From the IMG/VR virus record IMGVR_UViG_2703718827_000010, positions 1-34,304 of that record: a DNA stretch of 34,304 nucleotides, one strand, 5' to 3'. The DNA is from a virus (taxonomy: Duplodnaviria > Heunggongvirae > Uroviricota > Caudoviricetes). Shown here in pieces: positions 15,949-16,603 of the stretch. The first letter of the stretch is position 1; the number at the start of each line of letters is the position of its first letter. The position numbers and the translations under genes are program-made. A model generated the notes under the pieces. It ran no database searches. It was not told the origin of the DNA and saw nothing but the letters and a program-made list of their open reading frames with translations.

Positions 15949-16335
15949 ATGTCCGATCCGATTTCCGGTACTGGGCTGGCTGGTGGTGTCCTGACGGGAG
16001 CCAGTGTCTATGGATTTGTTTCCGGAACCGATTACGGCGTGGTGTTTGGCGCATTTGCCGGGGCTGTATTTTACATTGCAACCGCCGCGGACCTGAGTGC
16101 AGCGCGCCGGCTGGCGTATTTTGTCGTGTCCTACATCGCCGGGATCATCTGCTCAGGGCTGGTTGGTTCAAAGCTGGCTGACTGGACTGGTTACAGTGAT
16201 AAGCCTCTGGATGCCATCGGTGCCGTAATCGTTTCGGCTTTAGCTGTCAAAATCCTGACGTTCCTGAACAACCAGGATGTCGGCTCGCTGGTGGCGCTGA
16301 TAACGCGCCGGGGAGGTTCAGGTGGTACTAAATGA
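15949..16335 (+). CDS. Holin-like membrane protein
   Basis: 128 aa with three hydrophobic segments, first gene of lysis cassette. Confidence 0.6.
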   Translation: MSDPISGTGLAGGVLTGASVYGFVSGTDYGVVFGAFAGAVFYIATAADLSAARRLAYFVVSYIAGIICSGLVGSKLADWTGYSDKPLDAIGAVIVSALAVKILTFLNNQDVGSLVALITRRGGSGGTK

Positions 16336-16603
16336 CCCATCGGCAACAATCAACGCGCTGCTTTGCGCTGGGGTAGTGCTGACCCTGATGTTTTACCGTC
16401 GCGGTGATTCCCAACATCGACCATGGATATCTCGCTTAGCGTGGCTGCTTACGGTCATCTATAGCGCCGTACCGCTGGCGTATCTTTGCGGTATCTACCC
16501 TTATTCATCGTGGGCCACTATCGGGGCCAACATTATTTTCCTGTCTGTGCTGGTTGCCGTCAGAGGCAACGTGGCACGCCTGGTTGATCATCTGAGGCAA
16601 TAA
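16322..16603 (+). CDS. Second holin-like / antiholin-like membrane protein
   Basis: 93 aa, GTG start overlapping previous gene, two to three hydrophobic segments, directly precedes endolysin. Confidence 0.5.
   Translation: MVLNDPSATINALLCAGVVLTLMFYRRGDSQHRPWISRLAWLLTVIYSAVPLAYLCGIYPYSSWATIGANIIFLSVLVAVRGNVARLVDHLRQ

Follow-up and report, generated by a model that had tools for sequence, protein, structure and literature searches.

A conserved pair of holin-family genes upstream of the endolysin in the lysis cassette of an enterobacterial prophage

The window (the whole stretch of DNA analysed, 34,304 nucleotides of the IMG/VR virus record IMGVR_UViG_2703718827_000010) carried a complete Q-controlled lambdoid lysis cassette within a mosaic enterobacterial prophage, with its genes on the plus strand. 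A Q-type late antiterminator (14329..14907; DUF1133, E 1.7e-92; Phage_antitermQ, E 4e-8; phrog_753, anti-termination protein Q-like) was encoded upstream and is predicted to control transcription into the lysis genes. Consensus scanning located a terminator-like hairpin with a T-run on the same strand at 15879..15907 (8-pair stem, 5 GC pairs, TTTTTATT tail), some 40 nt ahead of the holin genes, and its read-through presumably needs Q. Two genes coding for membrane proteins, here called A (15949..16335) and B (16322..16603), were followed by a soluble GH19 endolysin (16603..17220) and by two spanin genes. The Rz-like i-spanin (17217..17744; DUF2514, PF10721, E 7.8e-47; phrog_312, Rz-like spanin) displayed one N-terminal transmembrane (TM) segment (residues 14-32), and the proline-rich, Rz1-like o-spanin (17440..17694; phrog_11621, E 3.6e-8) harbored the lipobox LASC and was encoded in the +1 frame of Rz. 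Another terminator-like hairpin from the consensus scan (18095..18116, plus strand; 9-pair stem, 6 GC pairs, T-run) came after the lysis cassette.

Three further reading frames lay around these genes. A 249-aa ORF (15045-15794, plus strand), located after the Q antiterminator and before the holin genes, displayed a very low GC content of 28-37%, compared with about 50-55% around it, and was bracketed by hairpins at 14954-14979 (terminator-like, consensus scan) and 15879-15897. It matched phrog_5322 (unknown function), had no Pfam, NCBIfam or PADLOC match, and occurred in just 4 of the 161 related loci. It resembles a moron occupying the position that stx has in Stx phages. A 54-aa ORF (17907-18071, plus strand) with two CxxC pairs, zinc-ribbon-like, was located between the spanins and the 18095-18116 terminator. 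Its homologue in another phage contig (L115, 4304-4501) followed a different spanin pair, thus the gene may be carried along with lysis cassettes. A 224-aa ORF with no assigned function (18159-18833, plus strand), located after the lysis cassette and ahead of the HNH/terminase region, had no PADLOC match.

Gene A starts with ATG behind the Shine-Dalgarno site GAGGGGG (15938..15944, plus strand, read from the sequence) and encodes a 128-aa protein with the N-terminus MSDPIS and the C-terminal tail TRRGGSGGTK. The protein matched PF16931 (Phage_holin_8) over its full length (E 4.5e-34, residues 1-123 on positions 1-121 of the 121 of the profile, 117.6 bits for a gathering cut-off of 26.4 bits) as well as the PHROGs family phrog_198, 'holin' (E 7e-41). 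Hydropathy scanning displayed three clear hydrophobic segments (31-49, 55-73 and 87-105) and a weak N-terminal one (5-23) rich in Gly/Ala/Ser/Thr. The AlphaFold2 model comprised four helices and a short C-terminal helix (pLDDT 68; like the model of B, it was built from a small alignment and is of modest confidence), and the number of TM segments varied with the predictor (2, 3 or 4), so the topology of this protein of 3-4 helices is uncertain. Searched with Foldseek against BFVD, the model returned no match at E<=0.001, and its weak top matches were other proteins named 'holin'. Members of the A family shared an acidic N-terminus (M-x-D/E-P), an invariant GxxxG-like motif in helix 2 (GAFAG) and a basic loop joining helices 2 and 3.

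Gene B starts with GTG, 14 nt inside A, and its Shine-Dalgarno site GGGGAGG (16310..16316, plus strand) falls within the codons for Arg-Gly-Gly toward the end of A. The 93-aa product, with the N-terminus MVLNDP and the C-terminal tail RGNVARLVDHLRQ, gave a full-length match to PF05449 (Phage_holin_3_7, formerly DUF754; E 1.3e-19, residues 10-88 on positions 1-79 of the 80 of the profile, 70.5 bits for a gathering cut-off of 25.4 bits) and matched phrog_217, 'holin' (PHROGs, E 1.5e-31). Three hydrophobic segments were found by hydropathy scanning (7-25, 40-58 and 62-80), and the AlphaFold2 model comprised three helices (pLDDT 60). Lysine and arginine residues were clustered in the first loop (26, 27, 33, 38) and in the C-terminal tail (81, 86, 92), and this charge pattern, together with the three segments, predicts the N-out/C-in topology of class I holins. 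Motifs conserved across the B family were NAxxC in TM1, FRRxxSxHR in the cytoplasmic loop and RGNV after TM3. B displayed the features by which the Young lab defines holins (small size, at least one TM segment, charged hydrophilic C-terminus, gene beside that of the endolysin), adjoining the endolysin gene itself; A had 3-4 segments. The preliminary description of this locus had reported two small, multi-TM, holin-like proteins of 128 and 93 aa before a GH19 endolysin, and these coordinates and lengths proved exact. The TM topology prediction that it had suggested as a check confirmed several segments in each protein (three clear and one weak in A, three in B, in agreement with the AlphaFold2 helices), and both genes belonged to holin families of Pfam and PHROGs.

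Homologues of A and B numbered in the hundreds, and their names, where given, were mostly 'phage holin family protein'. The two proteins are unrelated to each other and are not paralogues, hhalign of the two family alignments giving a probability of 0.4%. Homology was likewise undetected by hhalign between A and LysA, B and Y, or A and Y of phage P2 (probability 0.3-0.5%), LysA/Y being the only well-known antiholin/holin pair of Gram-negative phages that is encoded by separate genes, no relatives of A or B were found in the PDB at E<=1, and neither protein matched PADLOC or NCBIfam. Two other holins with expression data were considered as relatives and rejected as belonging to other families: Hol41 (SETP3-type Jerseyvirus holin) did not match PF05449, and UE-holin, judged through its pSb-1 gp15 homologue (DUF7940), matched neither the profile of A nor that of B. 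We suspect that the pyocin holin Hol of P. aeruginosa (PA0614), which works with a GH19 lysin, might be a member of PF05449. The antiholin of lambda is made from an upstream start within the holin gene. A lambda-type dual-start motif (Met-Lys/Arg-Met) was absent from both A and B, with no nearby second Met, and the same was found in the 13 other lineages examined. Any antiholin function must therefore come from a separate gene, and the absence of the motif is consistent with a holin/antiholin pair.

Adjacency of the two genes was nearly without exception. In close relatives, A lay directly 5' of B in 160 of 161 IMG/VR loci retrieved with either the A or the B protein, the one exception beginning at a contig end. 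When 50,697 phage records were searched by tblastn, B was found in 184 and A in 47, a difference attributed to the faster divergence of A, which lowers the sensitivity of tblastn. Fourteen named phages were then considered, chosen as carriers of a B homologue from very different groups: epsilon15-like (SPN1S, BUCT554, ST512-KPC3phi13.3), P2-like of Burkholderia and Ralstonia (Mana, AP3, RSY1), Casjensviridae (Soft, KPN U2874, MA11, UF_RH7) and N4-like (KpCHEMY26, FSL SP-076), with Hafnia yong2 and Edwardsiella EPP-1 as further members. In each of the 14, the gene immediately 5' of B matched an A profile, with E values from 1e-27 to 8e-8, and also PF16931 where tested. The pair spanned lambdoid, P2-like, epsilon15-like, Casjensviridae and N4-like groups, with identities down to about 27-40%. 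Four IMG/VR scans seeded with distant B proteins added 170 loci from four distant clades, and A preceded B in 167 of the 168 that included upstream sequence and could be evaluated. Seven of the distant loci had been flagged automatically as devoid of A; two of them were contig ends, four were high-GC artefacts of longest-ORF calling in which A was present, and one was a decayed prophage. In this last locus (L306, 1156-2425), an epsilon15-type cassette and the sole broken pair among the 168 loci, A was cut to 65 aa and the GH19 endolysin was N-terminally shortened, B being intact. A and B are close to an obligate unit.

The overlap between the two genes ranged from 1 to 14 nt, with the Shine-Dalgarno site of B inside the last codons of A, in 14 of 14 lineages. 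A Gly-Gly near the C-terminus of A coincided with the GGAGG Shine-Dalgarno of B in the same 14 lineages (window 16305-16335; junctions L162-L176), and the location of the ribosome-binding site within these codons explains its conservation. The end of A (16305-16335) is under constraint both at the protein level and at the RNA level.

Mosaic joints fell after B, and A was not seen separated from B among the loci examined. Compared with the Salmonella phage F1055 (OP745618.1, 38032-40116), a recombination joint was located exactly at the B/endolysin border (window 16603), the endolysin and Rz displaying 93% DNA identity while the A proteins were only 55% identical. Sixteen close relatives (8 distinct contigs, each retrieved in both scans) kept A and B with a GH108 + PG_binding_3 endolysin and different spanins.

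As a whole, the A/B pair very probably acts as the holin and timing module of the cassette. Within this module, we tentatively favor B as the hole-forming class I holin and A as its co-translated timing partner, either antiholin or co-holin. B would accumulate in the inner membrane, trigger, and open large non-specific holes through which the soluble GH19 endolysin would leave the cytoplasm, Rz/Rz1 then breaching the outer membrane. A would be translated from the same mRNA just before B, and the ribosome-binding site of B in the last codons of A would result in a fixed A:B ratio. Associated with B in the membrane, A would set the triggering time, acting in trans as antiholin or co-holin in the way of the dual-start product of lambda S. 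The identity of the hole-former, the interaction of A with B and the effect of A on timing are what we infer from the sequences, and the position of B next to the endolysin together with the charges in its first loop and C-terminal tail fits a class I holin topology. The missing dual-start motif in B, the strict pairing and the translational coupling lend indirect support to A as an antiholin. Only predictions were found in the literature searched for PF16931 and PF05449, with no experiments on either family. Some observations count against these roles. Phages can do without the known antiholins (P2 LysA, lambda S107), and this agrees poorly with the near-obligate co-occurrence of A and B over large distances. 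The invariant GxxxG-like GAFAG of helix 2 suggests that A could oligomerise itself, and the order of the P1 genes, holin then antiholin, is opposite to that assumed here for A and B.

A serious rival is a two-component (heteromeric) holin, in which neither protein would be lethal alone and the hole would be an A-B hetero-oligomer. This reading is possible, if somewhat doubtful. It is favored by the near-exceptionless adjacency in five phage groups at identities down to about 27-40%, by a translational coupling universal across the lineages examined, by joints at the B/endolysin border with A never seen apart from B, and by the invariant GxxxG-like packing motif in A. Near-obligate pairing also goes somewhat beyond what would be expected of a dispensable antiholin, but conserved regulators such as dual-start antiholins can persist equally. 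It is conceivable, though again doubtful, that PF16931 + PF05449 constitute an obligate two-component holin of lambdoid, P2-like, epsilon15-like, Casjensviridae and N4-like phages infecting Gamma- and Betaproteobacteria. In such a holin, the first helix of A, weakly hydrophobic and rich in Gly/Ala/Ser/Thr, might be a movable SAR-like timing element. To our knowledge, no two-component holin has so far been characterised from Gram-negative phages, and this one would be the first.

The roles could also be reversed, A being the hole-forming holin and B the antiholin or regulator. A comes first in the operon like the holin genes of lambda, P2 and P1 (lydA then lydB in P1; PMC9025707), has an ATG start and a strong Shine-Dalgarno site where B has GTG in this clade, and is labelled holin by Pfam and PHROGs too. 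B is nevertheless closer to the typical class I layout and adjoins the endolysin, and published annotations, by prediction, give the name 'holin' to the DUF754 protein. This exchange of roles appeared unlikely.

The enzymes served by the pair were informative about the size of the lesion. In the window, the downstream endolysin matched PF00182 (GH19; E 6.4e-8, 33.1 bits for a cut-off of 25.5), phrog_181 (E 8e-87) and the SPN1S endolysin structure PDB 4OK7 (E about 1e-78, residues 2-203), and it had no SAR or signal sequence and no hydrophobic segment in the hydropathy scan. Enzymes following the pair in other phages belonged to GH19, GH108 with PG_binding_3, PF00959 (GH24), and PF11860 muramidase with or without PG_binding_1; when an N-terminal TM or SAR segment was looked for in 14 endolysins encoded after homologous pairs, none was found (0 of 14). 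Because the pair serves four unrelated families of cytoplasmic enzymes, the lesion must pass folded proteins, which points to a canonical holin rather than to a pinholin. This supports, as a reasonable prediction, a canonical large-hole holin for the A/B module, as the preliminary description had argued for a GH19 endolysin devoid of signal-anchor. Its other suggestion, a pinholin-type arrangement in which the pair would only depolarise the membrane and thereby activate a secreted (SAR) endolysin, did not hold, no SAR endolysin being found beside the pair. Small multi-TM proteins and the weak, Gly/Ala/Ser/Thr-rich first helix of A, loosely SAR-like, would agree with a pinholin, but the absence of N-terminal hydrophobic segments here and in the 14 other phages, and the cytoplasmic type of all four enzyme families, make it very improbable.

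Both A and B are, judging from their patterns of conservation, real genes and not chance ORFs. Gene A was intact and of identical length in 158 of 158 full-length IMG/VR matches, and gene B in 140 of 141, the GTG start of the latter being kept in 140 of 140 relatives. Median dN/dS against the window was 0.069 for A and 0.067 for B (dS ~0.6 for both, IMG/VR relatives), displaying strong purifying selection. That either ORF is a remnant lacking function or translation, which the preliminary description had named as the outcome that would overturn its reading, has nothing in its favor beyond the unusual GTG start of B and is scarcely credible given dN/dS ~0.07 in both genes, essentially all copies intact, GTG and Shine-Dalgarno kept in 140 of 140 relatives, and distant paired homologues. 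Overall, the earlier interpretation was partly supported. Its holin/antiholin pair accounts for the data about as well as a two-component holin or an exchange of roles would. The comparison of loci adds that the A/B pair is a fixed, widely distributed and already annotated module.

The A/B arrangement is already known from PGAP, from GenBank notes and from three genome papers. In E. coli prophages sharing about 90% identity with the window, PGAP gives each of the two genes the name 'phage holin family protein', and the GenBank note of KpCHEMY26 reads 'Antiholin paired with adjacent holin protein'. In KS5, KS14 and KL3, a 'putative antiholin' and a 'holin (DUF754)' were predicted from position and TM counts (Lynch et al. 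2010, PMC3091744), a reading repeated in the AP3 paper (PMC5247547), and the announcement of Mana mentions 'two predicted holin genes' resembling those of epsilon15 (PMC8188340). From gene position and TM counts, independent annotators (PMC3091744, PMC5247547, GenBank notes) had arrived at the reading preferred here. The lysis cassette of the window is ordinary for a prophage, and automated annotation had already given names to its genes. On the other hand, few holin modules are as common as PF16931 + PF05449 among phages that infect Enterobacteria, Burkholderia and Ralstonia, and the database labels of the pair are inconsistent ('holin', 'antiholin', 'membrane protein', 'hypothetical'); assigning roles to the two proteins would correct them.

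Known lysis systems resembled the pair to different degrees. Joint regulation of lysis by two distinct small TM proteins from neighbouring genes is described for LysF1a/LysF1b of F1-cluster mycobacteriophages, for Bacillus thuringiensis phages and for LydA/LydB of P1 (PMC13056207, PMC9327680, PMC9025707), but these belong to unrelated protein families, with different hosts and envelopes, and P1 has a SAR endolysin. With P2, the window shares a three-TM holin (the class I holin Y in P2, B by prediction) and a multi-TM protein from a separate gene that affects timing (the antiholin LysA in P2, A by prediction). Both also have spanins of the Rz/Rz1 type and an endolysin that is soluble (P2 annotation; PMC3091744). 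It differs from P2, where the endolysin gene K sits between Y and lysA and lysA is non-essential, with no detectable homology. The likeness to S105/S107 of lambda lies in a class I, three-TM, N-out/C-in canonical holin (predicted for B), a soluble endolysin and Q-dependent late transcription, whereas the window has a second gene instead of a dual-start motif and the Pfam family also differs.

The same PF16931 + PF05449 pair is encoded by the P2-like Burkholderia phages KS5, KS14, KL3, AP3 and Mana, by the Ralstonia phage RSY1 and by the epsilon15-like Salmonella phage SPN1S. A of the window displayed 38% identity to gp8 of Mana (E 5e-20) and 32% to ORF13 of RSY1, SPN1S_0026 matched PF16931 (E 9e-11), and the B homologues of these phages all matched PF05449. 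The order of genes (A, B, endolysin, spanins) and the A/B overlap were likewise those of the window. Unlike the Burkholderia, Ralstonia and epsilon15-like phages, the window has the backbone of a lambdoid, Q-controlled late operon, and B starts with GTG in its clade; its endolysin is of GH19 type, where the phages of Burkholderia and Ralstonia encode a muramidase with PG_binding_1 and PF11860.

The closest counterparts were near-identical prophage cassettes of E. coli, Citrobacter, Salmonella and Klebsiella (82-90% DNA identity), such as those of E. coli ECZP248, Citrobacter phage Chris1 and Salmonella phage 118970_sal3. As in the window, their two genes measure 387 and 282 bp, overlap by 14 nt and are followed by GH19 and DUF2514; only allelic changes, flanking morons and spanins set these cassettes apart. 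Matches to the cassette of the window were found in 269 of 5426 complete E. coli genomes.
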